A stretch of 64,000 nt of DNA from Candidatus Melainabacteria bacterium RIFCSPLOWO2_02_FULL_35_15 (GTDB taxonomy: Bacteria; Cyanobacteriota; Vampirovibrionia; 2-02-FULL-35-15). The DNA is taken from positions 80,966-144,965 of the forward strand of contig MFRN01000043.1 of NCBI GenBank assembly GCA_001784585.1, in the 5' to 3' direction. Of the stretch, positions 2,946 through 52,355 are shown in pieces. Under the pieces are notes generated by a model. The model searched no databases. It was not told the DNA's origin and saw only the letters and a list, made by a program, of their open reading frames with translations. The translations under genes were made by a program, and so were the position numbers. Position 1 is the first letter of the stretch, and the number at the start of each line of letters is the position of its first letter.

Positions 2946-3684
2946 GTTTCATAAATTCTTCAAAGTTTAAACTGGCACCACCTACTAATCCGCCATCAAT
3001 ATCCGGGTATTTTATATGTTCGCCAAAATTATCTGACTTAACGCTGCCACCGTATAGAATTCTTACAGTTTCAGAAATTTGAGGGGTACTTTTTTCTTTT
3101 ATTGTACTTCTAATCATTTTTATTATTTTGTTTGCATCTTCACCACTACAGATTTTTCCTGTCCCGATTGCCCAGACAGGTTCATATGCAATAATTAGTT
3201 TTTCAATATCAGCACTGTTTAGATCTTTAATACCTTCAAGTACCTGATTTTTAACCTGGCTTTCAGCTTCGCCTTTTTCTCTGATTTTTAAATCTTCTCC
3301 TACACAAAACACTGGTGTAAGTCCAAATTTGAGTGCAGCTTTAATTTTTAGATTTACATCTTTATCACTTTCGTTAAAATATTGCCGTCTTTCGCTATGT
3401 CCGATTATCACCATTTCAATATGCAGGTCTTTTAACATTTTAGGAGAGACTTCCCCTGTATATGCTCCTTCTTCTTTATAGAACATATTTTGAGCACCTG
3501 TTTTGATATGAGGTGTATCTTTTAAGATATTGCTTATGGTTAAGAGATAAACAGATGGCGGACAAACAGTTATTTCAGCAGGTCGTTCAACTTTTATAGA
3601 ACTTTTTAATTTAAAGGTTAAATCCTGTGCATCAGCCAGACTTAAGTTCATTTTCCAGTTTCCAATGATTATTTTATTTCGCAT
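2893..3684 (-). CDS. tpiA: Triosephosphate isomerase
   Basis: IIGNWKMN motif near the N-terminus, catalytic IIGHSERR, and YGGSV near the C-terminus. Confidence 0.95.
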   Translation of the reverse strand: MRNKIIIGNWKMNLSLADAQDLTFKLKSSIKVERPAEITVCPPSVYLLTISNILKDTPHIKTGAQNMFYKEEGAYTGEVSPKMLKDLHIEMVIIGHSERRQYFNESDKDVNLKIKAALKFGLTPVFCVGEDLKIREKGEAESQVKNQVLEGIKDLNSADIEKLIIAYEPVWAIGTGKICSGEDANKIIKMIRSTIKEKSTPQISETVRILYGGSVKSDNFGEHIKYPDIDGGLVGGASLNFEEFMKLIDLASNAHSQVQSHSV

Positions 3685-3934: not shown

Positions 3935-4108
3935 ATTAGGCGCTGCCTTAGCTATGTTACTAAGTCTCATCTGACTAACTTACAAAGAAAGGTTTTGTCT
4001 GGTTTATCCAGCAAAACCTGAAAAATGACACAAAAGGCAGACTGCGAGCACTTTGCAAAGCCCGACAAGCGAGGTACGAAGCAAGGAGGGCGGTAGGCAA
4101 AAACTAAA

Positions 4109-5367: not shown

Positions 5368-6033
5368 ATGGCAAAATCAACCGCACAACATAGTAATGAG
5401 AAATCGGGTAGTTCTAAGTTACCGGAAGTTTTTTTAGGATTAAAACCTAACAAGCATTTATTACACTTATCAGTTTTAAGACAATTAGACAATCAGAGAG
5501 CCGGTACTGCTTCTACAAAGACCAAAGCCGAAGTCCGTGGTGGTGGTAAAAAACCCTGGAAACAAAAAGGTACAGGCAGAGCAAGAGCAGGATCAATCAG
5601 ATCACCTTTATGGGTTGGTGGTGGAATTACATTTGGTCCAAAGCCCAGAAGCTTTAAGTCTAATCTGCCTCAAAAAGCTAGAAATTTGGCAGAATTGCAG
5701 GCAATAGTGACAAAATCAGATTCACTGGTTATATTAAAAAATTTGCCTGAAATAAAAGACTGTAAGACAAAAAACTTTTTAAGCGCTATTAATTCCCTCT
5801 CACTAACTGATACCCCGCTTTTAATACTAGCTTCAAAAAAAGAGCAACATTTTAACGAAGCAAGGAGAGCATCAAAAAACATACCAGACATTGTTGTTCG
5901 TGACTGTAATTTTGCAGGTGTGTGGGATATCTTAAAAGTAAAAACCCTGGCAATTACAGAACATGCCTTAAAAGAGCTTGAGAAACGCTTTTTGTGGGTT
6001 TTAAAAAATAAAAAAATGAAAACCGGTAAATAA
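5368..6033 (+). CDS. rplD: 50S ribosomal protein L4
   Basis: GGGKKPWKQKGTGRARAGSIRSPLWVGGGITFGPKPR signature. Confidence 0.95.
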   Translation: MAKSTAQHSNEKSGSSKLPEVFLGLKPNKHLLHLSVLRQLDNQRAGTASTKTKAEVRGGGKKPWKQKGTGRARAGSIRSPLWVGGGITFGPKPRSFKSNLPQKARNLAELQAIVTKSDSLVILKNLPEIKDCKTKNFLSAINSLSLTDTPLLILASKKEQHFNEARRASKNIPDIVVRDCNFAGVWDILKVKTLAITEHALKELEKRFLWVLKNKKMKTGK

Positions 6034-6038
6034 AAAAA

Positions 6039-6329
6039 ATGAATAAAAATCTTACAAATATTTTAGAACCAATTATTACTGAAAAGAGTACTGCTTTAAG
6101 TAAGCAAAATAAATACACGTTTAAGGTTGTAAAGGATGCTACGAAAGATTCAATAAGAAAATCATTTCTTGAAATTTTTCCAGACAGAAAAATTACTTCA
6201 ATAAAAACATTAAAGATAAAAGGGCATTCAAAGCGTACAAAATCCGGTATAAAGTTTCCGGCAGATGGAAAAAAAGTAATTATTACAACTCTTGGTCCAA
6301 AGATAGAATATTTTCCTGATATAGGATAG
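6039..6329 (+). CDS. rplW: 50S ribosomal protein L23
   Basis: Size and position between rplD and rplB. Has an L23-like N-terminus (ILEPIITEKST). Confidence 0.9.
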   Translation: MNKNLTNILEPIITEKSTALSKQNKYTFKVVKDATKDSIRKSFLEIFPDRKITSIKTLKIKGHSKRTKSGIKFPADGKKVIITTLGPKIEYFPDIG

Positions 6330-6350
6330 ATAAGAAAGGAGGTAGATAAT

Positions 6351-7175
6351 ATGCCAGTAAAAGAAAGAAGACCTTTAACTCCCGGACAAAGAGGAATGAA
6401 CTTTATTGATTTTAGTGAAATTACAAAATCAAAACCCCAAAAAAGTTTACTTTTGCCTTATAAGAGAGGTTCAGGCAGAAATAACCAGGGAAGGATTACT
6501 ACCAGACATAAAGGTGGCGGTCATAAAAAACATTACAGAATAATTGATTACAAACGTGATAAAGACAATATCCAGGCAAAGGTAGTTGCTTTTGAATATG
6601 ATCCAAACAGAAACTGTAGAATTGCATTGTTGATTTACAAAGACGGAGAAAAGCGTTATATTCTGGCTCCAAATAATTTAAAAGTAAGCGACTCTGTAAT
6701 GTCCGGTGAAAGTGTTGAGCAAAAAGTCGGGAATTCGATGCCGCTTAGAAATATTACAGTAGGTGAATTCGTTCACAATGTAGAACTTAAGCCACATGCA
6801 GGAGGCCAGCTTGTAAGAACTGCTGGTGGTGCTGCACAACTTTTAGCCAAAGAAAATGAAGATGCTACGCTAAGATTACCCTCCGGTGAAATGAGAAGGG
6901 TTAATATTAACTGTCGTGCTACTCTTGGTCAGTTAGGAAACCTGGATCATTTAAATGTGAAGCTTGGAAAAGCAGGCAGAAAGCGTTATTTAGGTATTAG
7001 ACCTACTGTAAGAGGATCTGCCATGAATCCTGTAGATCATCCGCACGGTGGTGGAGAAGGCAGATGTCCAATTGGTGGTCAGCCAAAAACACCATGGGGC
7101 AAACCAGCAATGGGATTAAAAACCAGGAAGCCAAAGTTATCAGACAGATATATAATTTCAAGGAGGAAGAAGTAA
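6351..7175 (+). CDS. rplB: 50S ribosomal protein L2
   Basis: 274 aa. Motifs [22 protein letters not shown] and [14 protein letters not shown]. Confidence 0.97.
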
Positions 7176-7181
7176 AAAAGT

Positions 7182-7505
7182 ATGGGAAGATCACTAAAAA
7201 AAGGGCCTTATGTTCATCCTTCATTATTAAGAAAAATTAGTGAAATGAATAAATCAGGAAAGAAGCAAGTCGTAAAATCCTGGAAACGTGCTTCTATGAT
7301 TATCCCTGAAATGATTGGGCACACAATAGCTGTTCATAATGGAAAAAAGTTTGTACCTGTTTATATAACTGAACAAATGATAGGTCACAGGCTGGGAGAA
7401 TTTTCAGCTACAAGATATTTTAGAGCACATTCAGGAGTTGCTAAGAAAACTGAAGAAGCAGGGACAGAAGGAGGAAGTGCAGCACCAGCACCAAAATCTG
7501 CCTAA
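7182..7505 (+). CDS. rpsS: 30S ribosomal protein S19, with a C-terminal extension of about 15 aa
   Basis: [18 protein letters not shown] followed by [23 protein letters not shown]. Extra Gly/Ala/Pro-rich tail. Confidence 0.95.
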
Positions 7506-7575
7506 TGTTAATAGGAGGAAATAGGGAAACAGAGAAAGAGAGCAAAAATTTAAGCTTAAATTTTTGCAATAAAAC

Positions 7576-8076
7576 ATGACTAAAGCAATAGCAAAATATA
7601 TAAGAATGTCACCGCGAAAATTACGCCGTGTAGTAAATGAAATTCGTGGTAAGGATACTAACTCTGCACAGGTAATACTTAAGTTTATGCCTTATGCCGG
7701 AGCAAGGGTAGTTGAAAAAGTACTAAAGTCTGCAGTTTCAAATGCAAAAGAAAATGAAAAATTAAATCCTGACGAATTAAGAATTACTAAAGCTTTTGTA
7801 GATCAGTCTACTACTCTTAGAAGATGGAGACCAATGTCGCGTGGCAGGGGATATCCGATTTTAAAAAGAACAAGCCATGTGACTTTAGAAGTTGGTGTAG
7901 ATGAAAATCTTATTAATAACATCAAACATACTCCGGCTAAAAAACAAGTTAAGCATGATCATGACCACGATCACAAACATGATCACGATGAAAAGTCTAA
8001 AGATGAAGCTGTCAAGAAAGAAAAGAAACAAGTAAAAGAAAAAACAAAGAAAGATAAAAAGAAGAAAGAGGAATAA
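7576..8076 (+). CDS. rplV: 50S ribosomal protein L22, with a ~55-aa C-terminal His-Asp repeat and Lys-rich extension
   Basis: L22 core (ARYIRMSPRKLRRVVNEIRGK..) followed by KHDHDHDHKHDHDEKSKDEAVKKEKKQVKEKTKKDKKKKEE. Confidence 0.9.
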   Translation: MTKAIAKYIRMSPRKLRRVVNEIRGKDTNSAQVILKFMPYAGARVVEKVLKSAVSNAKENEKLNPDELRITKAFVDQSTTLRRWRPMSRGRGYPILKRTSHVTLEVGVDENLINNIKHTPAKKQVKHDHDHDHKHDHDEKSKDEAVKKEKKQVKEKTKKDKKKKEE

Positions 8077-8079
8077 GCA

Positions 8080-8817
8080 ATGGGTCAGAAGACACATCCC
8101 AGAGGATTTAGATTAGGTGTTATCCAAACATGGGATTCGCAATGGTTTGCAGCACCTAAAGATTATGCAAATCTTGTTTATGAAGACAAACTTATTCGTG
8201 ATTTTATAAAGGGAAAACTTTTTAATGCTGGCATCAGTAAGATTGAAATATGGAGAAAAGCACAATTAATTCAAGTCAATATTCATTCAGTAAGACCAGG
8301 TATTGTAGTTGGTAAAGGTGGACAAGGTTTAGAAACACTAAAGAATCAGGTTACAGAATTAATAAACAGAAAAGATATTATTGTTCAGATTAATGTAATT
8401 GAAGTTGCAAAAGCTGATCTTGATGCACAGTTAACCGCAGAAGCCATTGCACAACAGCTAGAAAGACGGGTAGCTTTTAGAAAAGCAATGAAACAGGCAA
8501 TGCAAAGAGCAATGCGCTCAGGTGCAAAGGGTGTAAAGGTAATGGTTTCCGGGCGCCTTGGTGGAAATGACATTGCCAGGACAGAATGGCTTAGAGAAGG
8601 AGCTATACCTCTTCATACTTTAAGAGCAGATATTGATTATGGACTTGCAACTGCAAAAACAATATTTGGAATTATTGGAGTGAAAACATGGATTTATAAA
8701 GGGATTCTTGCACCCGGTGAAGTAGCTCAAAGAAATGTTAAATTGGTTTCGAATCTTGATGGCGAAGAAGATGATACTCAGCAAAGAAGAAGAAGGAAAA
8801 AGAGAGGCGAACAGTAA
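8080..8817 (+). CDS. rpsC: 30S ribosomal protein S3
   Basis: [14 protein letters not shown]-terminus, KH domain, charged C-terminal tail. Confidence 0.95.
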
Positions 8818-8823
8818 AGAAAA

Positions 8824-9246
8824 ATGTTAGTGCCAAGACAGACAAAATTCAGGAAGCAAATGCGCGGCAGAATGACCGGAAAAGAGTCACGTGGTGTAAG
8901 ACTTCACTATGGTGAATATGGACTTCAGGCCCTGGCTCCAGCCTGGATTTCTTCAAAACAGCTGGAAGCAGCCAGAAAAGCTATGGTTAGGAGTATTAAA
9001 AGAGGTGGGAAAATTTGGATAATGGTTTTTCCGGATAAACCGGTTACTAAAAAACCTGCCGAGGTAAGAATGGGTTCTGGTAAAGGTAACCCTGAATTCT
9101 GGGTAACTGTTGTAAGACCAGGCCGAATCTTATTTGAAATGACAGGTGTTCCTAAAGATATTGCTGTTGAATCTTTGAGACTGGCATCTCATAAGCTTCC
9201 TATTAAGTGTCGAATTATAGAAAAGGGAGAGCATATTAAAGGATAA
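8824..9246 (+). CDS. rplP: 50S ribosomal protein L16
   Basis: [17 protein letters not shown]-terminus. Confidence 0.95.
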
Positions 9247-9249
9247 GTT

Positions 9250-9564
9250 ATGATGAAATTAGTTGAAATTAAAGAACTGCCAGTTGATGAGATTAGCGAT
9301 CAGCTAAAAAAATCACAACTAGAGCTTGTTAACCTAAAAATGAAATTTGCAAGCAGGCAGCTGGAAGATCCTTCTCAAATAAGAAAAAAAAGAAAGGAAA
9401 TTGCAAGGCTACATACTATAAAAACCCAAAAATTACATGAAGTTATCAGCGAACCTAAGACTGAAAAGGTTAAAAAAGTAAAAAAGAAAGTAGTAACTGA
9501 AACTTTTTCTAAATCTGAAAAGCCAAAACGTCAGACAAAGAAAAGGGGAAAACCGGAGACATAA
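9250..9564 (+). CDS. rpmC: 50S ribosomal protein L29, with a ~40-aa Lys-rich C-terminal extension
   Basis: The L29 core (ELxxLxxExxxLRF-like) occupies the first ~65 aa. The rest is a K/E-rich tail. Confidence 0.8.
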
Positions 9565-9565
9565 A

Positions 9566-9811
9566 ATGCCAAAGAAAGTTTTAAAGGGAAAGGTAGTAAG
9601 TGACAAAATGGATAAAACCATTGTTGTTGCCATTGAAAACAAACGACTTCATCCCAGGTATAAAAAACTTGTTTTAAAAACAAGAAAGTTTAAAGCACAT
9701 GATGAATCAAACCAGTGTAAAACAGGTGATGTGGTCGAAATCATAGAACATGTACCCATGAGCAAAACAAAAAGATGGTTACTGAAGGAGGTATTGGTGA
9801 AAGCTGACTAA
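9566..9811 (+). CDS. rpsQ: 30S ribosomal protein S17
   Basis: [29 protein letters not shown] pattern. Confidence 0.9.
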
Positions 9812-9840
9812 ACAAGATTTATTATGCTTTCATAATTAAA

Positions 9841-9868
9841 GGATTTGAGTGGTTTATCCACCAAATCC
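9841..9868 (+). promoter_or_regulatory. Hairpin element A (ggatttg-a-gtgg-TTTAT-ccac-caaatcc)
   Basis: 7+4 bp interrupted stem with a 5-nt loop. Second copy with compensatory stem changes at 3996-4023. Confidence 0.4.
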
Positions 9869-9887
9869 GATCAAACGTAAAGTAAGG

Positions 9888-9923
9888 ACGAAGGAAGCTT
9901 CAGCTTGTCTGAAGCTATAAAAA
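9888..9923 (+). promoter_or_regulatory. SD-hairpin-AUG leader module (GAAGG, then AAGCTTCAG-CTTGT-CTGAAGCT, then ATAAAAA, then ATG) upstream of rplN
   Basis: Read directly. One of four copies with a constant loop and co-varying stem. Confidence 0.55.
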
Positions 9924-10292
9924 ATGATACAACAAGAATCAAATTTAGAAGTAGCAGACAATACAGGCGCTAAAGCAGTGCGATGTATCAGAGTATTGAA
10001 AGGTGGTAATTCCCGCTATGCAGGAATTGGGGATTTGATTATTGGTGTGGTAAAAGATGCTCTTCCAAATATGCCTGTAAAAGAGCATGAAATTGTAAGA
10101 TGCGTAATAGTAAGGACTAAAAAGACTTTAAGCAGAAATGACGGAAGTAAAATCAGGTTTGATGAAAATGCAGTGGTAATTATTGATAAACAAAACAACC
10201 CTAGAGGCACACGTGTATTTGGTCCGGTAGCACGTGAATTAAGAGAAAAACAATTTATGAAAATTCTTTCTTTAGCACCGGAGGTTTTATAG
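9924..10292 (+). CDS. rplN: 50S ribosomal protein L14
   Basis: [18 protein letters not shown]-terminus. Confidence 0.97.
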
Positions 10293-10303
10293 AAAATTAA
10301 AAA

Positions 10304-10768
10304 ATGAGCGAGCAGTATATAAAAATAAATAGTAAAAATAAAAAACGCAGAGTTATTTTCTCCAAAGCACCTATTAAAGGACATCCTAAGAAAGGTGGCT
10401 TTTATATTGTCTCAGGTGCATTCCTTAAGAAAGATGCATCCAACCCAAGACCAAAATTACATATTAAAAGAGGTGATACTGTAATGATTATTTCCGGTCA
10501 GGACAAAGGAAAAACAGGTAAAGTAATTGCTGCATTTCCTCGTGAATCTAAAGTAATTATAGAAGGAGTAAATATAATTAAAAAACACCAGAAACCAAGA
10601 GGAGTTGGACAAGCTGGTGAAATTATTGAAAAAGAAGCTCCGATATTTGCATCAAAAGTAATGTACTATGATACGACGAAAAAAAAACCAACGAGAATTG
10701 GATATAAAATTTTAAAAGATGGGAAAAAGGTCAGGGTTTCAAAAGCTAGCGGGGAACAAATTGACTAA
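10304..10768 (+). CDS. rplX: 50S ribosomal protein L24, with an apparent N-terminal extension (start uncertain)
   Basis: KOW motif region [24 protein letters not shown] matches L24, preceded by ~50 extra basic residues in the longest ORF. Confidence 0.85.
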
Positions 10769-10773
10769 GTCTT

Positions 10774-11328
10774 TTGAGGTTAAATATGGCAAAAAATTTA
10801 AGAAAAGAATTTAAAACGAAAATTGCAAAAGACCTAATGAGCACATTAGGTTATAAAAATCAGCTTGAAGTTCCTATGCTAAAAAAGATTGTTGTAAATA
10901 TGGGTATGGGCGAAGCAATGTCCGATTCTAAGTATTTAGATAGTGGGCTTAATGACATGAAAACAATTACTGGTCAAAAGCCGCTAATTACAAGAGCAAA
11001 AAAATCTATTGCAACCTATAAAATCAGGGAAGGTGGCCCGGTTGGATGTATTGTTACTTTAAGAGGCCAAAGAATGTATGATTTCTTCAGTAAACTTGTG
11101 AATTTGGTACTACCCAGACTTAGGGATTTTAAAGGAGTTTCTCCAAAAAGCTTTGACGGGAGAGGAAGTTATAATTTAGGATTGAAGGAACAAATTGTTT
11201 TTCCTGAAATTAAATATGATAAGGTCGATAATGTAAGAGGAATGGATATTGCAATTGTTACAACTGCAAGGACAAATAAAGAGGGGCTGGAGCTTTTAAA
11301 AGCTTTAGGAATGCCTTTTAGGAAGTAG
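10774..11328 (+). CDS. rplE: 50S ribosomal protein L5
   Basis: L5 family motifs (..VPMLKKIVVNMG.. and ..RGMDIAIVTTA..). Confidence 0.95.
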   Translation: MRLNMAKNLRKEFKTKIAKDLMSTLGYKNQLEVPMLKKIVVNMGMGEAMSDSKYLDSGLNDMKTITGQKPLITRAKKSIATYKIREGGPVGCIVTLRGQRMYDFFSKLVNLVLPRLRDFKGVSPKSFDGRGSYNLGLKEQIVFPEIKYDKVDNVRGMDIAIVTTARTNKEGLELLKALGMPFRK

Positions 11329-11356
11329 TTTATGGGAAGTAATAAATTTATCACCT

Positions 11357-11428
11357 GCGGGTGTAATTCAGTGGTAGAATGCAAGCTTCCCAAGCTTGAC
11401 GTCGCGGGTTCAAATCCCGTCGCCCGCT
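11357..11428 (+). tRNA. tRNA-Gly (anticodon CCC)
   Basis: Cloverleaf read by hand. Acceptor stem GCGGGTG/CGCCCGC with discriminator U. Anticodon stem CAAGC/GCTTG with loop TTCCCAA. T-loop GGTTCAAATCC. Lies between rplE and rpsZ. Confidence 0.85.
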
Positions 11429-11547
11429 CATTTTTGCGGAGCAAAATGAGCGAGGTCCGCTCAGCATAGCTGAGCGACCCGCTATCCAGAGTCAGTGGTT
11501 AGTGGTCAGAAGTTAGAAGGAAACAAGGAGATAAGTTAAATAAAAAT

Positions 11548-11754
11548 ATGGCTAAATTATGCATGATTGAGAGAGAAAGGAAAAAAAGAATATTAGTCGC
11601 AAAAGGTAAATATCCTAAAATAGGACTTCATAACCGTTGCAGGAGCTGTGGCAGATCACGTGGTTATTATAGAGACTTTGGGCTTTGCAGACTATGTCTA
11701 AGAAAAATGGCACACATGGGATTATTGCCTGGTGTAACAAAAGCCAGCTGGTAG
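11548..11754 (+). CDS. rpsZ: 30S ribosomal protein S14, zinc-binding type Z
   Basis: [38 protein letters not shown]. The C4 zinc ribbon and the KASW end are typical of S14 type Z. Confidence 0.9.
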
Positions 11755-11783
11755 AGAAAAAAGAAGAGGTAAGGAAACAAAAA

Positions 11784-12185
11784 ATGTCTCATACAGATTC
11801 AATAAGTGATATGTTAACAAGGATTAGAAATGCAGTTCATGCAACACATGAAAGTGTTGAAATTCCATTATCCAAATTAAAAATACAGATTGCAGAAGTT
11901 TTGAAAAAAGAAGGATACATTAGTTCTTATGAACTTTTTGAATCAGATCCTGTAAAAAAGAATATTAAAGTATTTTTAAAATATGGTCCACGAGGTGAAA
12001 AGTTAATTACAGGAATTCAAAAAGTTTCCAAGCCGGGTTTAAGAGTTTATACAAAATCAAAAGATGCAAAAAGAGTTCTGGATGGTCTGGGAATTTATAT
12101 TATTAGTACAAGCAGGGGCCTAATGACTGATCGACAGGCCAGGAAAGAAAAAGTTGGAGGAGAAGTTCTTTGTAAGGTCTGGTAA
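11784..12185 (+). CDS. rpsH: 30S ribosomal protein S8
   Basis: [18 protein letters not shown]-terminus. The track ORF starts upstream at 11685 and overlaps rpsZ. The internal ATG at 11784 is in the same frame and gives a canonical 133-aa S8. Confidence 0.9.
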
Positions 12186-12209
12186 GTTAGAGATCAGAGG
12201 AAATAAAAT

Positions 12210-12770
12210 ATGTCGAGAATAGGAAAAAATCCAATAAACATACCGGATAAAGTAGAAATTACTATTACTGATACTCTTGGCGGACAAATCGTTAGAGTTA
12301 AAGGCCCTAAGGGTGAGCTCGAAAGCAAGTTTAGAAAAGAAATTAAAATTACTAAAGAAGACAAAAAAATTATTTTTAACAGGGAAAATGATGAAAAATT
12401 AGTAAGAAGTCTTCATGGTTTAATCAGATCATTAGTACAAAATATGATTCTTGGCGTTACAGAAGGATTTAAAAAAGAATTAGATATTGTAGGTGTAGGT
12501 TATAAAGCTCAGCTTCAGGGGACAAAACTGGTTTTACAAATGGGGTACAGTCATCCGGTTGAAGTTACTCCTCCAAACAAAGAAACAAAAATTGAAGTAG
12601 ATAAAACCCAGACTCACCTTACCATTACTGGAATCAGCAAGCAGACTGTCGGGGACTTAGCTGCTTATATCAGATCTGTTAGATTTCCTGAACCGTATAA
12701 AGGTAAAGGCATTAAGTATTCTGATGAAAAAATCAGAAGAAAGGTTGGAAAATCTGCTGCCAAAAAATAG
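12210..12770 (+). CDS. rplF: 50S ribosomal protein L6
   Basis: MSRIGKNPI N-terminus. Two-domain L6 pattern. Confidence 0.95.
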   Translation: MSRIGKNPINIPDKVEITITDTLGGQIVRVKGPKGELESKFRKEIKITKEDKKIIFNRENDEKLVRSLHGLIRSLVQNMILGVTEGFKKELDIVGVGYKAQLQGTKLVLQMGYSHPVEVTPPNKETKIEVDKTQTHLTITGISKQTVGDLAAYIRSVRFPEPYKGKGIKYSDEKIRRKVGKSAAKK

Positions 12771-12785
12771 GCTAAGGATAAATCA

Positions 12786-13154
12786 ATGATAAATCAAACT
12801 TTAAAAAAAGAAAGAACAAGGAAAAGACACCAGAGAATTAGAAATAAGATTATGGGAACCAAGGAACGCCCAAGACTTTGTATTTATAAATCTAATAAGC
12901 ATATTTATGCTCAGTTAATTGATGATGTTGAAGCAAAGACTTTGCTGTTCTGCTCTACAGTTCAACCATCTTTAAGGTCAAAGATTAAATCAACCTGGAC
13001 AAAAGAAGCAGCTAAGATAGTTGGAGAAATGATTGCTAAAAGTGCTACAGAGAAAGGAATTAAAGATGTTGTATTCGATCGCGGCGGTAACAGATATCAT
13101 GGTAAAGTTATAGCTTTTGCAGAAGGAGCAAGAGGTGCGGGTTTAAAATTTTAG
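12786..13154 (+). CDS. rplR: 50S ribosomal protein L18
   Basis: ..RPRLCIYKSNKHIYAQLIDD.. and C-terminal DRGGNRYHGKV. Confidence 0.9.
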   Translation: MINQTLKKERTRKRHQRIRNKIMGTKERPRLCIYKSNKHIYAQLIDDVEAKTLLFCSTVQPSLRSKIKSTWTKEAAKIVGEMIAKSATEKGIKDVVFDRGGNRYHGKVIAFAEGARGAGLKF

Positions 13155-13175
13155 AAACTTATTAGAGAGGGAAAT

Positions 13176-13946
13176 ATGTCAGAAGAAGAAGAAGAAAAAA
13201 AAGAAGTTAATATTAATGAAGAAAAACAGATTTCTTCAGAAAGTACAGAACAGATAACTGTTCCAGAAACTTCAGAACCAGTGAAAGTTGCTGATGCTAC
13301 TGATGTTCCTGCTTCAGCTGAAGCTGAGGAAGATGAAGTCGATGAACTAACTGGTATTGAAGAGGCTTCTGAACAGGAAATATTCCAAAAAGTTACAAAA
13401 AAAGAAACCAGAAAAAAAAGAAAAAAGCGTAGTGAAAGAGGTCAGGATAAAGGTAAAGAAGCCTCTGAATGGATTGAAAAAGTTGTTCAGATTAGAAGAG
13501 TTACCAAGGTTGTAAAGGGGGGTAAAAAATTAAGTTTTAGAGCAGTTGTTGTAGTTGGGAATGCTAAAGGGCAGGTAGGCGTAGGAGTTGGTAAAGCACT
13601 TGAAGTTATAAGTGCTATTCAAAAAGCTGTTGTTGATGCAAAGAAAAATTTAATTCCAATTCCACTTATAAATTCCACTATTCCTCATCAGATTCTTGGT
13701 AGAGCAGGTGCTGCAAAAGTTCTCTTAAAACCTGCCAGAGAAGGTACTGGTATAAAAGCAGGTGGAGCTGCCAGAACAGTTCTTGAGTTAGGTGGAGTAG
13801 GTGACATTCTTTCAAAGTCATTAGGTTCACGTTCACCATTGAATGTAGCCAGAGCAACACTTAATGGTTTAACCAAGCTTAGACAATTTGGAGGTGTTGC
13901 ACAGCTTAGAGGAATGACTTTAAAAGAAATGATAGCAGCAAATTAG
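13176..13946 (+). CDS. rpsE: 30S ribosomal protein S5, with an ~85-aa acidic N-terminal extension
   Basis: S5 core (..[21 protein letters not shown]..) preceded by an E/D-rich low-complexity region ([22 protein letters not shown]..). Confidence 0.9.
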
Positions 13947-13955
13947 ATATAACAG

Positions 13956-14444
13956 GTGGTAGGGATTATGCAGTTAAGTGAATTAAAATCAGCTAAGGGT
14001 TCAAGAAGAAAAAGAAAAACTGTAGGTCGTGGTCCGGGTTCTGGTCATGGTAAGACTTCCTGCAGAGGAAATAATGGTCAGGGGCAAAGAGCAGGAAAAG
14101 GTCACAGAGCTGGTTTTGAAGGTGGTCAAACCCCAATCTACAGAAGACTTCCAAAATATCAGGTAAATGAGAGACCAAACAGATTAATATGGGCAGTTGT
14201 AAATCTAAAGGATTTGGAAGATCTTTCAGGTTCTAAGGTTATAACTCCGGAATTGCTTTTAGAAAAAAGCATAATAGATAATTTAAATGCTGGCTTAAGA
14301 GTCCTGGGAGACGGTAATATAAATTTTTCTGCTACTATAAAAGCACATTATTTTTCACATTCAGCAAAAGAAAAGATTGAAGCAGCTGGCGGTAAATGTG
14401 AATTAATAAATAACACTAAGGACAATGGCAAATCAGGCAAGTAA
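13956..14444 (+). CDS. rplO: 50S ribosomal protein L15
   Basis: L15 N-terminal pattern. Directly follows rpsE, with no rpmD (L30) gene in between. Confidence 0.9.
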   Translation: MVGIMQLSELKSAKGSRRKRKTVGRGPGSGHGKTSCRGNNGQGQRAGKGHRAGFEGGQTPIYRRLPKYQVNERPNRLIWAVVNLKDLEDLSGSKVITPELLLEKSIIDNLNAGLRVLGDGNINFSATIKAHYFSHSAKEKIEAAGGKCELINNTKDNGKSGK

Positions 14445-15888
14445 ATCAGGTAAAGAAGCAGATCTTTCGACATTTTTAGAAATGTTCCAGTCTGCTGGCT
14501 TAATGAAAAGAATAGTTTTTACTATTTCTATGCTGGCTATTTACAGACTTGGTGTTCACATACCTTTAATAGGTGTTAACCATGAGCTTTTAAAGAGATC
14601 AAATGTTTTAACAAGTGGTCTTTTAGGACTGGTAGATTTATTTGCCGGTGGTGCTCTTAGTGCACTGTCTATATTCGCACTTGGTATTGGCCCTTATATT
14701 ACATCTTCCATTATTATGCAGTTAATGACTGAAGTAATTCCAGCTCTAAAAAATATACAGAGAGAACAGGGTGAGCAGGGAAGAAAACAATTTCAGCAAA
14801 TTACACGGAGAACTACAGTAGCACTGGCAATTATTCAGTCACTTGCTTTAGCCAGATTCCTGGATGTAGCAGGTGTTGCCCCGGCTGGAACACCGGCATT
14901 TTATTTAAATACTATTGTTATACTTACCTGCTCAAGTGTTTTTGTTATGTGGCTCGGAGAAGTCATTACTGAGCGTGGTATCGGGAACGGTGCTTCTATA
15001 TTGATTTTTATAGGGATTGCCTCGAGAATGCCTATTATGATTAGAGATACAATTACTGCTATGAATACAGGTTCGTCTCCTGCCTGGGGCGTTGCCACAT
15101 TGTTGCTTGTGTTCTGTTTGCTTGTATTTTTAATAATTTATATTCAGGAGGGTGCGAGAAAGATTTTAGTATTAGGTGCCAGGAGGCAAGCAGCTGGCGG
15201 GAGAGTAACTGCAGCACCGGATCACTATATGCCATTTAGAATTAATCCTGCAGGTGTTTTGCCTATTATTTTTGCAAGCTCTTTAATGTTCCTTCCATTA
15301 CAGCTTCTTGCTTTTGCAGGTCTTCAGGATAAATCTGTTTCAATTACTTTACGAGATCTCTTTACAAATACCCCGGGACTTGGTCAGCTTTCATTTGCAC
15401 TCTCGCAGATCAAAGTAGGAGAGAGTTATATTTTTGCTGATTTTGGAAACTGGCTGTCACTCCAGGTTGAATATCTCTTTAGAACCGGGCACTGGCAACA
15501 TTCACTGGTTTATTTCTTTTTAATTCTTTTATTTTCATATTTTTATGCTTCGATAATTTTAAATCCGCGTGAAGTAGCAGAAAACCTGAAAAAAAACGGA
15601 TCTGCCATTCAGGGTGTTAAACCAGGGAAAGCAACCAGTGATTACCTCGATATTGTAATTAACCGGATAGTTTTTGTCGGTGCCATTGCGATTGGACTTG
15701 TGGCTGTAATTCCAATCCATGTAGAACAATTATGCCAGGTAGCAACTCTTGGTGGTTTGGGAAGCACTTCACTTATAATTCTTGTAGGGGTTGCTATAGA
15801 TACCAGAAACCAGATTATTGCATATGCTCAAACTCACAGATATCAAACAAGGAGCATTTTAAGTTTTTCGTCTAAGAAAACCTTATGA
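14425..15888 (+). CDS. secY: Preprotein translocase subunit SecY
   Basis: About 10 TM helices. SecY motifs (..GIMPYITASIIMQL..-like IGPYITSSIIMQLM). Confidence 0.95.
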   Translation: MANQASKSGKEADLSTFLEMFQSAGLMKRIVFTISMLAIYRLGVHIPLIGVNHELLKRSNVLTSGLLGLVDLFAGGALSALSIFALGIGPYITSSIIMQLMTEVIPALKNIQREQGEQGRKQFQQITRRTTVALAIIQSLALARFLDVAGVAPAGTPAFYLNTIVILTCSSVFVMWLGEVITERGIGNGASILIFIGIASRMPIMIRDTITAMNTGSSPAWGVATLLLVFCLLVFLIIYIQEGARKILVLGARRQAAGGRVTAAPDHYMPFRINPAGVLPIIFASSLMFLPLQLLAFAGLQDKSVSITLRDLFTNTPGLGQLSFALSQIKVGESYIFADFGNWLSLQVEYLFRTGHWQHSLVYFFLILLFSYFYASIILNPREVAENLKKNGSAIQGVKPGKATSDYLDIVINRIVFVGAIAIGLVAVIPIHVEQLCQVATLGGLGSTSLIILVGVAIDTRNQIIAYAQTHRYQTRSILSFSSKKTL

Positions 15889-16676
15889 GTTTTGTTGAAA
15901 AAATAAATAGTAGATTTTCCGACAAACTGTTTCAAATTAATAATTTTATTTATACCCTGGTAGTAAATTTGCTGGATGCATTTTTTATAATTTTTAGAGA
16001 TTTGCCGCGGGGTAAGTTTTATTATGAAAATTTTCTTGAGAGCTTAAGAAAAATCGCCTGGAACTGTCTGCCCATTGCTACGCTTACTATATCTGCAAGT
16101 GCTTTTATTTACTCTATTCATGGTGCTCCTGAAATGTCAAAAAGAGGTTTAACTGATTATTTAGGCGGGCTTGTGGCACTGGCGTTAATTCGTGAAAGTG
16201 TCCCTGTTATGGCAGCACTGGCAATTGTTTCCCAGTATTCATCTGGTATGACTGCTCAGATAGGTTCTATGAAGGTAACCGAACAATTAGATGCCATGAA
16301 AGTTTTAAAAGTTTATCCCAGTGCATACTTGCTTGTACCTATGTTGTTAGCAGGCTTAATTGGTTTTCCGATTGTAATCATGATTTGTATTTTAGTAGGG
16401 ATATTTATAAATTATCTGGTTTCAAATGTATTAATTGATATCAGTTATCATCTTTATTTTTCATCAATTTTAAGAGCTGTAGTTATGAAGGATATTTTCC
16501 TTGCATTGATTAAAGCATCCATGTTCGGATTTTTTATTGCTTTAATAAGTTATATTTGTGGCATTCTTACTCAGGGCGGAGCTAAAGCAGTTGGAAATTC
16601 TACCAGGCTCTCAGTAGTGATTAATTTTATTTTAGTAGTAATTCTGGATTATATAATTACAGCGTTGTGGTTATAG
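15885..16676 (+). CDS. MlaE/Ttg2B-family ABC transporter permease (lipid-trafficking-type permease)
   Basis: 263 aa, multi-TM, with a conserved MlaE-like core (..LIRESVPVMAALAIVSQYSSGMTAQIGSMKVTEQLDAMKVLKVYP..). Overlaps the secY stop by 4 nt. Confidence 0.75.
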   Translation: MSFVEKINSRFSDKLFQINNFIYTLVVNLLDAFFIIFRDLPRGKFYYENFLESLRKIAWNCLPIATLTISASAFIYSIHGAPEMSKRGLTDYLGGLVALALIRESVPVMAALAIVSQYSSGMTAQIGSMKVTEQLDAMKVLKVYPSAYLLVPMLLAGLIGFPIVIMICILVGIFINYLVSNVLIDISYHLYFSSILRAVVMKDIFLALIKASMFGFFIALISYICGILTQGGAKAVGNSTRLSVVINFILVVILDYIITALWL

Positions 16677-16681
16677 TTATG

Positions 16682-17350
16682 CTATGCTACATTCCATTTC
16701 TTAATCGATGGCTTAATTATAAGCATTGTCCCTTCTGCACCAGGAACAGCTCCTTTAACTAATAAAAGATTTTTTTCTTTATCAAAATCTATAACTTCCA
16801 GATTTCTAACTGTTACTTCTTCATTTCCCATACGGGACGGCATGTTTTTCCCTGGCAATACTCTTCCCGGAAAAGTATGTGCACCGATAGAACCTGGAAG
16901 TCTGTGTGACTTAGAGCCATGCGTTTCAGGCCCTCTGTGTTTGTTATGCAGTTTAACCATACCCTGGAAACCTTTTCCTATAGATATCCCGGAGACATCT
17001 ACTTTTTCTTTTAAAACAATTATTTTTGAATGATCTAAAACTTGTCCAACTTTGTATGAATCTAATTCTTCAGGTTTTACTCTAAACTCCTTTAAATAGC
17101 TAAGATTTGGAAGATTTTTCTTTTTTAAGTTTCCAAGTTTTGGTTTATTTAAGTGTTTATCTTTTTTTACATTTGCCCCGATCTGTACTGCTGAATAACC
17201 GTCTCTTACAGGTATTTTAATATCAGTAATAATATTTTCAGCCAGTTCTATAACTGTTACAGGAACAGCATCTCCATCCTGGTTAAAAAACTGTGTCATG
17301 CCAAGCTTTTTACCTAATATCTCTATTCTGAATCTGGATAGCTGCGTCAT
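16682..17350 (-). CDS. rplC: 50S ribosomal protein L3
   Basis: ..[10 protein letters not shown].. N-terminal region and a C-terminal region typical of L3. Confidence 0.95.
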
Positions 17351-17676
17351 AATTTTAGTTCTATATCTACTCCGGCAGGTAAGTCTAATCTGGTCAGAGC
17401 ATCTGTAGTTTCATTTGTCGGATTTTCAATGTCAACAAGTCTCTTATGAATCCTGATTTCAAAATGTTCTCTGGATTTTTTATCTACATGTGGAGATCTG
17501 TTTACACAATAGATATGACGATCTGTCGGTAGATAAATAGGACCTGTTATAGATGCACCTGTACGGTTAGCTGCATCTACAATCTGATCACATGAAGCAT
17601 CTAATGCTCTATGATCGTATCCTTTTAAGCGAATACGAATCCTGTTTTTCAGAGATTGTTGTGCTGTTTTTGACAT
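17347..17676 (-). CDS. rpsJ: 30S ribosomal protein S10
   Basis: ..[21 protein letters not shown].. S10 signature. Confidence 0.95.
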
Positions 17677-17712
17677 TTTTTATAGCTCCAGACAAGCTGG
17701 AGCTTTCCTCTC
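17677..17712 (-). promoter_or_regulatory. SD-hairpin-AUG leader module upstream of rpsJ (minus strand: GAGG, AAAGCTCCAG-CTTGT-CTGGAGCT, ATAAAAA, ATG)
   Basis: Reverse complement of 17677-17712 read directly. Same module as at rplN, accB and the acyl-CoA synthetase gene. Confidence 0.55.
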
Positions 17713-17780
17713 GATCTTCCTTTGTGATTGATCACATTTGCCGAATGAATCGGACAAATGCTCTCTCTTTAATAAGCATA

Positions 17781-18995
17781 TTAGCTTAAAATTTTACTTA
17801 CTACACCAGCTCCTACAGTTCTACCGCCTTCACGGATTGCAAATCTCATGCCTTCTTCAATTGCAACTGGCTGAATAAGTTCTACTTCCATGGCAATATT
17901 ATCTCCAGGCATTACCATTTCAACCCCGGCTGGAAGTATTACTGAACCGGTTACATCAGTAGTTCTGACATAAAACTGAGGTCTGTAACCCGGGAAAAAT
18001 GGAGTATGTCTGCCACCTTCTTCTTTGGTTAATATATAAACCTCAGCATTAAACTTTGTGTGAGGCTTTATGCTGCCTGGCTTTGCAATTACCTGACCGC
18101 GTTCAATACCTTCTTTTTCAATACCTCTTAAAAGCACACCTGCATTATCACCTGCTTGAATTTCATCAAGTGTTTTTCTGAACATTTCAAGGCCGGTTGC
18201 TATTGTCTTAGTAGTATCTTTAATACCAATAATTTCAATTTCTTCCTGTACTTTTAATTTACCTCTTTCTACACGACCGGTTGCAACTGTTCCACGACCG
18301 GTAATAGAAAAGACATCTTCAACTGCCATAAGAAATGGTTTGTCTACATCTCTTTGCGGGGTTGGTATGGATTTATCTATAACATCCATAAGTTCATGAA
18401 TACAGTCTACATCTTTATTTTCACCTTTTTTTATTGCAGGGTTTTTTAGCAAAGCTTCCATTGCTTTTAGAGCAGAGCCTTTAACAATGGGGATCTCAGC
18501 TCCTTTAAATCCATACTTTGTTAAAAGTTCTCTGGTTTCAACCTCAACAAGGTCAACTAACTCTTTGTCGTCAACCATATCTACTTTATTTAAAAAGACA
18601 ACAATATTTGGAACACCTACTTGTCTTGCCAATAAAATATGTTCTCTAGTCTGTGGCATAGGACCATCTGCAGCAGAAATAACCAGGATTGCTCCGTCCA
18701 TCTGTGCTGCACCTGTAATCATATTTTTAATATAGTCAGCATGCCCTGGGCAGTCTACGTGTGCATAGTGTCTGCTTTTTGTTTCATATTCCTGGTGAGA
18801 TGTGTTTATAGTAATCCCACGTGCTTTTTCTTCCGGCGCTGAATCAATTTCATCGTATTTTCTTGGTTTGGCAAGTCCTTCAGCAGCTAGTGCCATTGTT
18901 ATAGCTGCAGTTAAAGTTGTCTTACCATGATCTACGTGTCCAATTGTTCCAATATTTACATTTGGTTTTGTTCTTTCAAACTTTTGCCTTGCCAT
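17781..18995 (-). CDS. tuf: Elongation factor Tu
   Basis: [18 protein letters not shown] and NKVD GTPase motifs. 404 aa. Confidence 0.98.
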
Positions 18996-28108: not shown

Positions 28109-28672
28109 ATGATATCTTCTAATGATTTTAGAACAGGTCAAACAATTCTCTGGAATAACGGTATCTGGACAGTTATTGAATTCCTGCATGTAAAGCCTGG
28201 CAAAGGAGCTGCATTTGTCCGGGCCAAACTTAAAAATGTGGAAAAGGGTAATGTCATCGAAACTACTTTTAGAGGTGGTGAAAAGGTTCCGGTTGCAAAT
28301 GTAGAAAAGCGTGAAATGCAATATCTTTTTAAGACCGGCGATAGAATCACATTTATGGATAATCAGACCTATGAGCAGTTAGAAGTAGGAGAAAGTCAGA
28401 TTGGTGAACCGGTTAAATTTTTAAAAGAAGGCACAAATGTTATGGTCGTATTCTTTGATGAAAAGATTATAGGAATTGATCTTCCTGCACATGTTGAACT
28501 TAAAGTTGCAGAAACACCTCCCGGTGTTCGCGGTGATACTGCTGCAGGAAACAATAAACCTGCTACACTTGAAACAGGTGCTCAGGTTCAGGTACCGTTC
28601 TTTGTTAATATTGGCGATATTGTCAGAATCGATACCAGGACTAACCAATATATCGATCGGGTAAAGGCATGA
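28109..28672 (+). CDS. efp: Elongation factor P
   Basis: MISSNDFRTGQTI.. and KPGKGAAFVRAKLKN (site of the conserved modified Lys). 187 aa. Confidence 0.95.
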   Translation: MISSNDFRTGQTILWNNGIWTVIEFLHVKPGKGAAFVRAKLKNVEKGNVIETTFRGGEKVPVANVEKREMQYLFKTGDRITFMDNQTYEQLEVGESQIGEPVKFLKEGTNVMVVFFDEKIIGIDLPAHVELKVAETPPGVRGDTAAGNNKPATLETGAQVQVPFFVNIGDIVRIDTRTNQYIDRVKA

Positions 28673-28705
28673 AATGGAGGCAGCTTGTCTGGAGCGAAAT
28701 AAAAA
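28673..28705 (+). promoter_or_regulatory. SD-hairpin-AUG leader module (shortened copy: GGAGG, CAG-CTTGT-CTGGAGC, GAAATAAAAA, ATG) upstream of accB
   Basis: Read directly. Same conserved CAGCTTGTCTG core as the other three copies. Confidence 0.45.
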
Positions 28706-33138: not shown

Positions 33139-33257
33139 TCCTTGGTGAGGATGCGGCTGGATCACACTCGTTCCCATTCCGAACACGACAGTAAAGACAG
33201 CTAGCAGTGACAATATTTAGATCGCAAGGTCTTGAGAAGATAACCATTCGCCAGGGA
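33139..33257 (+). rRNA. rrf: 5S ribosomal RNA (orphan copy, no adjacent 16S/23S)
   Basis: ~119 nt. The terminal helix I pairs (tccttggtg with cgccaggga). Internal conserved CCCATTCCGAACACG..GTAAAG loop-C region. Own promoter upstream and an intrinsic terminator downstream. Confidence 0.75.
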
Positions 33258-40845: not shown

Positions 40846-40864
40846 CTTTGCATTCTTAGGGAAA

Positions 40865-42712: not shown

Positions 42713-42736
42713 ATTTGAAAGTGGAGATAAATAAAA

Positions 42737-52205: not shown

Positions 52206-52320
52206 TTTGTAGCCTAATTTAGCAACTAATCAGCTAGAATTATATAATCATTATGATGTTTTGTGTAATAAAACTGATCACTAATATATGATTTTGTACT
52301 TGTAATTATCGGAATTGACC

Positions 52321-52355
52321 GACGGAAGCTGCAGCTTGTCTGCAGCATTAAAAAA
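52321..52355 (+). promoter_or_regulatory. SD-hairpin-AUG leader module (GACGGAAG, CTGCAG-CTTGT-CTGCAGC, ATTAAAAAA, ATG) upstream of the acyl-CoA synthetase gene
   Basis: Read directly. Fourth copy of the conserved module. Confidence 0.5.

Follow-up and report, generated by a model that had tools for sequence, protein, structure and literature searches.

Correia/NEMIS elements of Neisseria, ERIC, BOX, and RUP are dispersed, noncoding repeats of ~100 to 150 nucleotides (nt) that are transcribed with their neighbors and are polymorphic for presence or absence among strains, and their RNA hairpins affect processing, stability, or expression. REP/BIME, REPIN-RAYT, and PATE elements are short palindromic intergenic repeats that occur in tens to hundreds of copies, are modular, mosaic, and co-transcribed, and lack target duplications. 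At the level of individual genes, phage T4 genes 38 and 25 have a stable hairpin that separates a purine-rich element from the AUG, and E. coli rpsA has a structured leader that lacks a Shine-Dalgarno (SD) sequence and initiates efficiently. Putative mobile promoters are families of closely similar 50- to 100-nt sequences, with up to 93 members, located directly upstream of unrelated genes within and between genomes and most numerous in cyanobacteria (Matus-Garcia, Nijveen & van Passel 2012, PMC3488235). The TAACTGA direct repeats are abundant and lineage restricted and lie a few nt from start codons, in regions with few canonical ribosome-binding sites; the genes downstream show no functional pattern and include ribosomal-protein genes (MacGregor 2015, PMC4679880). 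Here, we describe a repeat found at four sites in a 64,000-nt stretch of the genome of Candidatus Melainabacteria bacterium RIFCSPLOWO2_02_FULL_35_15 (contig MFRN01000043.1, positions 80,966 to 144,965; the window). All four belong to a family of modular intergenic repeats, each ~90 to 110 nt long, that is dispersed through one groundwater Melainabacteria lineage and specific to it; it is a new family among the known dispersed intergenic repeats and portable leaders and has the unusual trait of a fixed start-codon register. Judging from the sequences, we put at roughly 55% the probability that the element serves as a portable 5′ leader, i.e., a translation-initiation cassette, within the known dispersed-repeat or "mobile promoter" kind.

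In 5′-to-3′ order, the parts of the element are a left motif, a first hairpin (P1), the sequence GATC, a purine-rich linker, a second hairpin (P2), and an A-rich tail, and similarity among copies in metagenome-assembled genomes (MAGs) of Melainabacteria reaches ~75 nt upstream of P2. The left motif is weakly conserved, as (c)gtacTTGCAAyTAtA. P1 (consensus GGATTTG-T-CCGA/TCGGCAAATCC, with the 3′ arm TCGG-CAAATCC) has 11 bp, a bulged T, and the loop TTTAT; the linker (consensus GAAAGGAATTGACCGAAGGAA) is single-stranded and contains two AGGA-type motifs, with up to three AAGGA-type motifs in one element. P2 has the consensus AGCTYCAG-CTTGT-CTGRAGCT, its loop being CTTGT in nearly all copies and its stem flanked by invariant A's, and is followed by the tail (consensus nTATAAAA); the right end of the element always borders an A-run. 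P1 and P2 are unlike each other in sequence, stem length, and loop. Terminal inverted repeats were not found: when the right end is reverse complemented (TATAGCTCC...), it has no more than TATAG in common with the left end (TTGCAAyTATAGG...). Neither a helix closing the element at its flanks nor one joining the tail to the 5′ flank of P1 is supported, the best column pairing being ~0.6. Filled and empty rpsJ, rplN, and secY sites revealed no target duplication, the flanks being too diverged or too short to exclude one of 2 to 3 nt.

The copies in the window, with their scores under covariance model R1, are as follows.
9828 to 9923, plus strand: copy 1, full length, flanked by the rpsQ stop (9811) and the rplN ATG (9924), 96.9 bits.
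9828 to 9840, plus strand: left motif of copy 1, TTTCATAATTAAA.
9841 to 9868, plus strand: P1 of copy 1.
9869 to 9895, plus strand: purine-rich linker of copy 1.
9896 to 9916, plus strand: P2 of copy 1, with the stem AGCTTCAG/CTGAAGCT and the loop CTTGT.
9917 to 9923, plus strand: tail of copy 1, ATAAAAA.
17677 to 17780, minus strand: copy 2, full length, flanked by the tuf stop (17781) and the rpsJ ATG (17676), 85.4 bits.
17761 to 17734, minus strand: P1 of copy 2.
17704 to 17684, minus strand: P2 of copy 2, with the stem AGCTCCAG/CTGGAGCT and the loop CTTGT.
17683 to 17677, minus strand: tail of copy 2.
28673 to 28705, plus strand: copy 3, a decayed remnant between the efp stop (28670 to 28672) and the accB ATG (28706), 22 bits (E = 0.016).
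52296 to 52355, plus strand: copy 4, a short form before the ATG of an acyl-CoA synthetase gene (52356), 46 bits.
52328 to 52346, plus strand: P2 of copy 4, GCTGCAG-CTTGT-CTGCAGC, 7 bp.
52347 to 52355, plus strand: tail of copy 4.

A preliminary description of the window had noted a leader shared by four gene starts, consisting of an SD, a hairpin with an invariant core, and an ATG. The common architecture is confirmed for the core and for three of the stems by sequence, fold, and shuffles; the hairpin is present as described but forms only the 3′ part of the ~90- to 110-nt element. Specifically, the core CAGCTTGTCTG occurs exactly four times, at 9901(+), 17699(−), 28681(+), and 52332(+), while a fifth match with one mismatch (43610, within rpoC2) is due to chance, and five core matches were reached in none of 100 dinucleotide shuffles of the window. 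The exact copies sit 8 to 10 nt 5′ of the ATGs of rplN, rpsJ, accB, and the AMP-binding acyl-CoA synthetase gene, which encode L14, S10, a biotin-carrier protein (its gene coming after efp), and an AMP-binding enzyme, respectively. In copies 1, 2, and 4, a purine-rich stretch ending in GGAA or GAAA is followed by the hairpin, an A-rich tail of 7 to 9 nt, and the ATG, which lies 8, 8, and 9 nt after the P2 stem; these three of the four window copies have P2 stems of 7 to 8 bp with a compensating pair. The minimum free energy (MFE) hairpin of copy 1 is P2 (−10.4 kcal/mol), and copies 1 and 2 fold as P1 plus P2 (z = −4.0 and −3.4). In copy 4, the left motif GTACTTGTAATTAT is joined straight to the linker GGAATTGACCGACGGAA and P1 is missing, an architecture that recurs at the rpsJ site of the related locus L206. 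The shortened GCAG/CTGG stem assigned earlier to the accB copy could not be sustained: it contains a G-G clash, gives no P2 fold, and belongs to a remnant in which the core (28681 to 28691) persists without P1, the linker, or the P2 5′ arm, as is clear from the accB ortholog in the related locus L055, which is preceded by a full-length copy. A filter-free covariance-model search of the window returned no copies beyond these four, along with a module at 3988 to 4062 that has only a P1-type hairpin (see below).

Both hairpins are maintained by compensatory change. On alignment A2 (42 pattern-selected copies), P1 was 97% paired, with double-sided changes in 10 of its 11 pairs, and the free position of P2 was U-A in 21 copies, C-G in 17, G-C in 2, U-G in 1, and mispaired in 1. 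On alignment A3 (57 hits fitted to model R1), double changes were found in 16 of 18 pairs (P1, 10/11; P2, 6/7), and 98.1% of the cells were paired, compared with 85.7% in shuffles (the observed value being reached by 0/500) and 19 to 50% with slid partners. Because A3 was fitted to the model, it leans toward structure, but the P1 result on A2 is free of that bias. These data bear out the original argument that the compensatory changes reflect selection on pairing. In addition, an R1 search over 0.5 Mb recovered copies whose P2 departs from the search pattern yet stays paired (AGCTCAAG/CTTGAGCT; AGTTTCAG/CTGAAACT, with the loop TTTGT; GGCTTCAA/TTGAAGCC; AGCGCAAA/TTTGTGCT; and CGCTCGAG/CTTGAGCG), the pairing-preserving changes in P2 including CAAG/CTTG, GTTTCAG/CTGAAAC, CAA/TTG, and GCGCAAA/TTTGTGC. 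G·U outnumbers A·C in P1 by 14 to 7, which weakly suggests that selection acts on the sense RNA and not on one or the other DNA strand. Covariation of the paired positions, G·U included, disfavors a palindromic operator bound by a dimeric transcription factor. The tail and the AUG are unpaired in both MFE and centroid folds. Two further pairings were rejected, namely, a linker helix GATCAA/TTGAC (61% paired) and an alternative helix of the linker GGAATTGACCGA and the P1 3′ arm, which forms 10 of 11 consensus pairs but is lost when P1 covaries, as is the resemblance of the linker to the P1 5′ arm (inspection of A2).

To place the family beyond the window, species-representative genomes were scanned with the 19-mer pattern GCTNCAGCTTGTCTGNAGC, which yielded at least 109 stretches. 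About half of those listed are chance matches in unrelated phyla, mostly intragenic or in ordinary terminators, and the remaining half belongs to nine low-GC MAGs: Candidatus Melainabacteria nzgw190, 191, 192, and 193, RIFCSPHIGHO2_02_FULL_34_12, SSGW_16, NC_groundwater_946, Caenarcanales SW_12, and one MAG labeled as Gammaproteobacteria that has the same composition and the element. The family thus comprises at least ~60 copies in at least nine related Melainabacteria MAGs, and extrapolation from 4 copies per 64 kb and at least 7 pattern matches in one 412-kb contig gives ~70 to 200 copies per genome. The preliminary description did not recognize the structure as a named RNA family, and Rfam agrees: release 15 gave no match at the four sites at gathering thresholds, a permissive scan of 9780 to 9960 returned only noise (E ≥ 0.47), and nothing adjoined the copies in 16 further loci. 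Plasmid and phage blastn searches with the whole element gave no match; the 19-mer matched viral contigs eight times, each in an unrelated context, and a metagenome scan with SecY returned sequences nearly all from distant phyla. We know of no self-cleaving ribozyme, preQ1-I riboswitch, CRISPR repeat, integron attC site, or recombinase site whose consensus or context fits the element. The 19-mer GCTGCAGCTTGTCTGCAGC is also present in Bacteroidaceae (L050, L098, and L106), within a repeated CCTCCTTTT...AACACGAGGAGAATT context that may be a separate repeat, and in Ignavibacteria (L056, L108, and L113), where a T-run follows as in ordinary terminators; these 19-mers are unrelated to the Melainabacteria element.

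Next, we analyzed the position of the copies relative to genes, using simple open reading frame (ORF) calls, with one obvious misclassification corrected in the orientation counts. An ORF of at least 60 codons starts 8 to 12 nt after P2 in 25 of 59 copies, compared with 2.3% of 43,200 positions drawn at random from the same loci (P ~ 2e−25), a conservative control; the link to start codons noted at the four window sites therefore extends to the family. In more than 40% of the copies, the tail ends 0 to 3 nt before a start codon in the sense orientation, and no SD occurs between P2 and the ATG in these ATG-adjacent copies. In ten more copies the start codon is 15 to 42 nt away, and nearly all of these genes have their own AGGAG, AAGGA, or AAGGGG at a normal distance. 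Co-directional intergenic copies are in the sense orientation in 26 cases and antisense in 5 (P = 2e−4). The downstream genes are mixed and include rplN, rpsJ, secY, efp, accB, pth, dnaJ, and genes for hisS-like, RNase J-like, and gcvH-like products, an RND pump, a phosphodiesterase, a HAD phosphatase, and an acyl-CoA synthetase, among others, most identities having been judged by N-terminal sequence alone.

We then compared orthologous sites among relatives, whose syntenic tuf-rpsJ...secY...rplN regions were fetched via EF-Tu homologs (identity of 96% for L205; 92% for L203, L204, and L206; 87% for L199 and L200; and 80% for L202). Model searches and sequence inspection gave an occupancy matrix of four sites in seven genomes, as follows.
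rpsJ site, filled: the window and L203, full; L206, short form with the loop TTTTT.
rpsJ site, empty: L204 and L205 (24- and 9-nt spacers); L199 and L200 (long spacers, other hairpins).
rplN site, filled: the window and L205, full.
rplN site, empty: all others, including L199, L200, L203, L204, and L206, with 13- to 21-nt spacers and a GGGG/GGGA SD in most.
secY site: core module only in L205; empty in the window and others.
efp site: full in L206; empty in the window.

Individual loci thus show gain, loss, truncation, and tandem duplication of copies. At empty orthologous sites, a conventional GGGG, GGGA, or AGGA lies 8 to 15 nt before the ATG; copies at start codons take the place of this short native spacer and SD, even within the essential S10/spc ribosomal gene cluster, in the rpsQ-rplN and tuf-rpsJ intervals. 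At the shared rplN site, about 11 of 23 P1 positions differ between the window and L205, all in a compensatory manner, and a difference at about half of the positions suggests replacement or independent insertion rather than simple descent. Tandem duplicates excepted, the identity of P1 plus linker is 67% within a genome and 64% between genomes; since within-genome divergence is about equal to that between genomes, there has been no recent burst. The element is therefore a long-lived, dynamic, dispersed repeat and not the conserved leader of particular genes. Nor is it a module of ribosomal-protein operons and lipid genes, as had been supposed from the four window sites: copies precede many unrelated genes and tRNAs and adjoin convergent tRNA ends and terminators, and the orthologous rpsJ, rplN, and secY sites are empty in close relatives. 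Because unrelated genes are preceded and site occupancy varies among close relatives, the copies do not define a ribosomal-protein/lipid regulon.

Several features of these regions were recorded alongside. In L203, the tuf stop and P1 are only 13 nt apart. The secY start is overlapped by 20 nt of rplO in the window (14425 to 14444); in L205 (= L089; 14467 to 14552), rplO ends earlier and the 48-nt core module lies between its stop and the secY ATG. The S10 cluster is split between rplC and rplD (window positions 5368 to 17676), so that minus-strand tuf (17781 to 18995), rpsJ (17347 to 17676), and rplC (16682 to 17350) face plus-strand rplD...rpsQ-rplN...secY (5368 to 15888), with an MlaE-like gene between the two blocks; the arrangement is the same in L199, L200, and L203 to L206, i.e., the inversion has been kept across the clade. 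Within the spc cluster of ribosomal-protein genes, rplE is followed by a tRNA-Gly(CCC) gene (11357 to 11429) and then by the rpsN/rpsH region.

How does the element compare with the described systems? It has the same genomic signature as putative mobile promoters, and its core (linker, P2, and tail; at least ~48 nt) lies upstream of more than 25 different genes, as the sequence criterion for such promoters demands; that criterion is at least ~80% identity over 50 to 100 nt, and the whole element falls lower, at ~65% in P1 plus linker. Unlike putative mobile promoters, which are defined by identity alone, it has two covarying hairpins, a fixed ATG spacing, and intra-operon copies. None of the promoter candidates within the element was convincing. 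A histogram of −10-like hexamers showed no peak or fixed position relative to P1; TTGACC...TATATA would require a sigma-70 spacer of 26 nt; TTGCAA-N17-TTTATT (the P1 loop) lacks A−11 and would place the transcription start site within P1; and TTGCAA-TATAGG has neither the GG at −24 of a sigma-54 promoter nor an extended consensus of the T7-like type. Like REP/BIME, REPIN-RAYT, and PATE repeats, the element is short, palindromic, intergenic, modular, and mosaic, occurs in tens to hundreds of copies, and is probably co-transcribed, and one relative has a Y1-type transposase-like gene; unlike REPs and REPIN-RAYT systems, it has no GTAG-type tetranucleotide and no inverted doublets, and whereas REPs lie mostly at gene 3′ ends, it lies 8 to 12 nt before start codons. 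It broadly resembles Correia, ERIC, BOX, and RUP repeats as a small, dispersed, structured repeat but shows neither their terminal inverted repeats nor a visible TA target duplication (as in Correia), and it keeps a fixed start-codon register that they do not have. The TAACTGA repeats are the closest functional parallel, although they are arrays of an unstructured heptamer and the present repeat is a single hairpin unit of ~100 nt. The leaders of T4 genes 38 and 25 and of rpsA are single-gene, nonrepeat cases, and the SD-like element of the present repeat is only moderately conserved. Finally, a ribosomal-protein autoregulatory leader (S10/L4 or spc/S8) does not fit because many nonribosomal genes are preceded and the rpsJ and rplN sites are empty in relatives; a riboswitch or RNA thermometer is contradicted by the lack of any alternative structure that sequesters the SD or AUG; and an intrinsic terminator is contradicted by the sense strand, in which P1 is followed by GAUC and P2 by UAUAAAAA, a T-run occurring only after the reverse complement of P1-type modules.

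If the element is a portable translation leader, it would be co-transcribed with the downstream gene, and its 3′ module (linker, P2, and A-rich tail) would serve by itself as the translation initiation region. The AUG would be presented by the A-rich tail, which is unstructured, P2 would shield the tail from upstream RNA and may place the GGAA/AAGGA stretch at an effective distance of 7 to 11 nt from the AUG, and P1 and P2 would probably stabilize the transcript. Because the genes concerned are essential and have no SD between P2 and the ATG, we infer that the 3′ module itself supports initiation. The separate SD in copies farther from the ATG fits this proposal. So does the makeup of the genome: an SD-like motif is present in 19 of 49 window genes (two of these motifs being within P2) and absent in 30, i.e., SD-less, A-rich leaders are the norm. 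Two variants of the mechanism are conceivable. The unpaired A-rich tail may suffice, with P2 as an insulator or stabilizer; alternatively, P2 might bridge the GGAA/AAGGA stretch to 7 to 11 nt from the AUG. The latter has modest support from the GG of the upstream GGAA, which is present in 21 of 25 ATG-adjacent copies and 13 of 24 gene-less copies (Fisher P = 0.03, post hoc). In the preliminary description, folding of the hairpin was held to bring an otherwise too distant SD near the AUG. The spacing of 7 to 11 nt and the GG enrichment agree with that part of the proposal, but the motif is GGAA instead of GGAGG, is only moderately conserved, and also occurs before tRNAs; moreover, the premise that an SD-to-AUG distance of 30 nt is too long carries little weight because only 19 of the 49 window genes have an SD-like motif.

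Several observations count against a portable leader. The GGAA beside P2 is only moderately conserved, and tRNAs are among the sequences that it precedes: three copies lie 12 to 13 nt before tRNA-Ser, tRNA-Cys, and tRNA-Gln. Approximately 24 copies (about 40%) have no gene after them, most of which adjoin either a convergent tRNA 3′ end (L014, L018, L038, L069, and L093) or the U-tract of a convergent terminator (L034, L083, and L043), and none of the small ORFs after these gene-less copies is convincing. Given the copies at tRNAs and gene 3′ ends, translation is not the sole determinant of copy survival. An insertion preference for A-runs could contribute to the start-codon pattern, and such a preference of the right end would unify the gene-start, tRNA, and 3′-end contexts. 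Relatives with 87% identical EF-Tu (L199 and L200) have no copy in the 42 kb covered, the context statistics rest on crude ORF calls, and because most loci were ascertained by the exact P2 19-mer, the apparent invariance of P2 is inflated, P2 being ~14% off consensus in pattern-independent copies. Lastly, all evidence is comparative and comes from MAGs, and both co-transcription and a translational function are deduced from it.

We regard it as unlikely, though still worth weighing, that the element is purely selfish, i.e., a nonautonomous REP/PATE/MITE-like element with no host function whose hairpins are single-stranded DNA recognition structures for a transposase such as Y1/HUH and which inserts beside A-runs, which precede starts and, on the opposite strand, follow terminators and tRNAs. 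Uneven occupancy of sites, copies that are truncated or in tandem (including tandems of the element and a tRNA fragment in L018 and L069), the many copies that adjoin convergent terminators or tRNA ends with an A-run, the lack of a visible target duplication, and the small excess of G·U over A·C in P1, which is weak for a preference for the RNA strand, are all in keeping with such an element. The conserved bulged T of P1 is reminiscent of IS200/IS605 hairpins. Furthermore, L203 contains (2336 to 2884) a gene for a 182-amino-acid IS200-like Y1 (HUH) transposase that is RAYT-like and has an HFH motif (Pfam PF01797, E = 4e−6); however, this gene was found once, with no element in its flanks and no second copy in the other fetched DNA, which covers small genome fractions. 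An IS200/IS605-derived PATE would have two similar subterminal hairpins, left and right, bound by one TnpA; P1 (GGATTTGTCCGA...) has no relation to P2 (AGCTYCAG...), in contrast to the paired ends of IS200/IS605 elements or REPINs, and this speaks against such a PATE just as the absence of terminal inverted repeats speaks against a MITE. At rplN, rpsJ, or secY, an insertion 8 to 12 nt ahead of the ATG eliminates the native SD and would be lethal unless the element supports initiation; the sense bias (26 versus 5) is strong; and although there was no recent burst, the hairpins are 97 to 99% paired. A selfish repeat unrelated to start codons, which had been named earlier as the outcome that would overturn the leader proposal, thus matches in part: the repeat is dispersed, gained, and lost, but it is linked to start codons. 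As a candidate for an autonomous parent, the region upstream of a P2-only copy in L058 was inspected and holds only CutA-like and GntR-type genes.

It is more doubtful that the copies form a posttranscriptional regulon, in which one trans-acting protein or small RNA would bind P2 (the YUUGU loop and the stem) and/or the AGGA motifs of the linker and co-regulate the translation or stability of ~100 mRNAs, spread of the element having brought the genes into the regulon. The conservation of P2 exceeds the needs of pairing (the CTTGT loop and the flanking invariant A's), each element has up to three AAGGA-type motifs, and an analogous proposal has been made for the TAACTGA repeats in Beggiatoaceae and cyanobacteria (PMC4679880). 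Conversely, the downstream genes have no functional coherence, presence at essential genes varies between close relatives, copies occur before tRNAs and at gene 3′ ends, and P2 conservation is partly an effect of ascertainment. A tblastn search for CsrA, FliW, and Hfq was negative in the fetched DNA, which at ~1.5 Mb is uninformative.

Similarly doubtful is a stronger form of the leader proposal, in which P2 plus tail would be a ribosome- or factor-recognized initiation module on an element targeted just 5′ of start codons. Here, an 8-bp hairpin at −8 to −28 would dock at the SD/anti-SD position or bridge an upstream SD.

The originally proposed gene-specific switch, a thermo- or protein-responsive structure with a hairpin-bridged SD on the lead genes of two ribosomal-protein operons and two lipid genes, is largely refuted and very improbable: folded P2 does put GGAA/AAGGA 7 to 11 nt (effective) from the AUG, GG is commoner in ATG-adjacent copies (P = 0.03), and phage T4 genes 38 and 25 offer a precedent for a hairpin-bridged SD, but the element is neither specific to these genes nor conserved at them, no alternative fold hides the SD or AUG (both the AUG and the tail are unpaired in the predicted fold, and the linker helix is only 61% paired), an SD is missing from most genes of this genome, there is no hairpin in the accB copy even though it sits at the start codon of a presumably expressed biotin-carrier gene, and rplN is not clearly first in an operon because its spacer to rpsQ is only 13 to 21 nt in relatives. 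A portable translation leader is thus much more probable than a dedicated switch for ribosomal and lipid genes.

Other repeats of this lineage share parts with the element. One further module was found in the window.
3988 to 4062, plus strand: P1-type hairpin alone, GGTTTTGTCTGG TTTAT CCAGCAAAACC, followed by TGAAAAATGA...ACTTTGCAAAGCC; 35.5 bits with R1.
This module does not count among the copies of the P2 element, and its minus strand reads as a hairpin plus TTTCTTTG (a T-run) 47 nt after a heptosyltransferase gene and looks like a terminator. P1-only modules occur elsewhere (L031:3716-3790, L055:7513-7566(−), L055:3691-3765(−), L086:3070-3132, and L102:3453-3502) and consist of the hairpin, TGAAWAATGA, and ACTTTGCAAAGCC ~35 nt on; they form a second family that shares only the P1-type hairpin, which suggests that repeats in this lineage are mosaics assembled from reusable hairpin modules. 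In L107 (2696 to 2921), two tandem P1-bearing variants with another 3′ half, lacking P2, lie just upstream of a tRNA (2947 to 3036). The tandems at L069:3020-3540 (−) and L018:7511-7942 have units of 200 nt and 249 nt, each unit consisting of one element and the 3′ 34 to 47 nt of the neighboring tRNA (Trp and Ala, respectively), and only the last unit meets the intact tRNA; they could be the remnant of an integrase att-site duplication or a simple tandem duplication. Apart from repeats, the window contains a lone 5S rRNA (33141 to 33256), the preceding 1.5 kb being an opposite-strand ORF so that there is no adjacent 23S, and an rpoC that is split into two genes (40784 to 46438; Rpb1 domains 1 to 3, then 3 to 5), which is the cyanobacterial arrangement and was of help in placing the window taxonomically. 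The EF-Tu encoded in the window is 100% identical to that of Candidatus Melainabacteria bacterium RIFCSPLOWO2_02_FULL.

The repeat adds a well-defined, covariation-supported RNA/DNA motif, absent from Rfam, from poorly studied, uncultured, nonphotosynthetic relatives of cyanobacteria. Even if only selfish, the element would still be a useful marker of genome dynamics in these MAGs and a caution against taking "leader motifs" that recur within one window for a regulon ahead of a census of the whole family. If its 3′ module stands alone as an initiation region, it would be a natural portable leader that can be inserted between a stop codon and an ATG, even within the S10/spc ribosomal cluster, without killing the gene, with a bearing on how SD-less mRNAs are recognized in cyanobacteria-like bacteria, on the spread of regulatory sequence within genomes, and on the design of hairpin "insulator" leaders. 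Should the doubtful targeted module prove true, it would be a self-propagating initiation cassette that has rewired ~100 genes, essential ribosomal operons included, in one Melainabacteria lineage.

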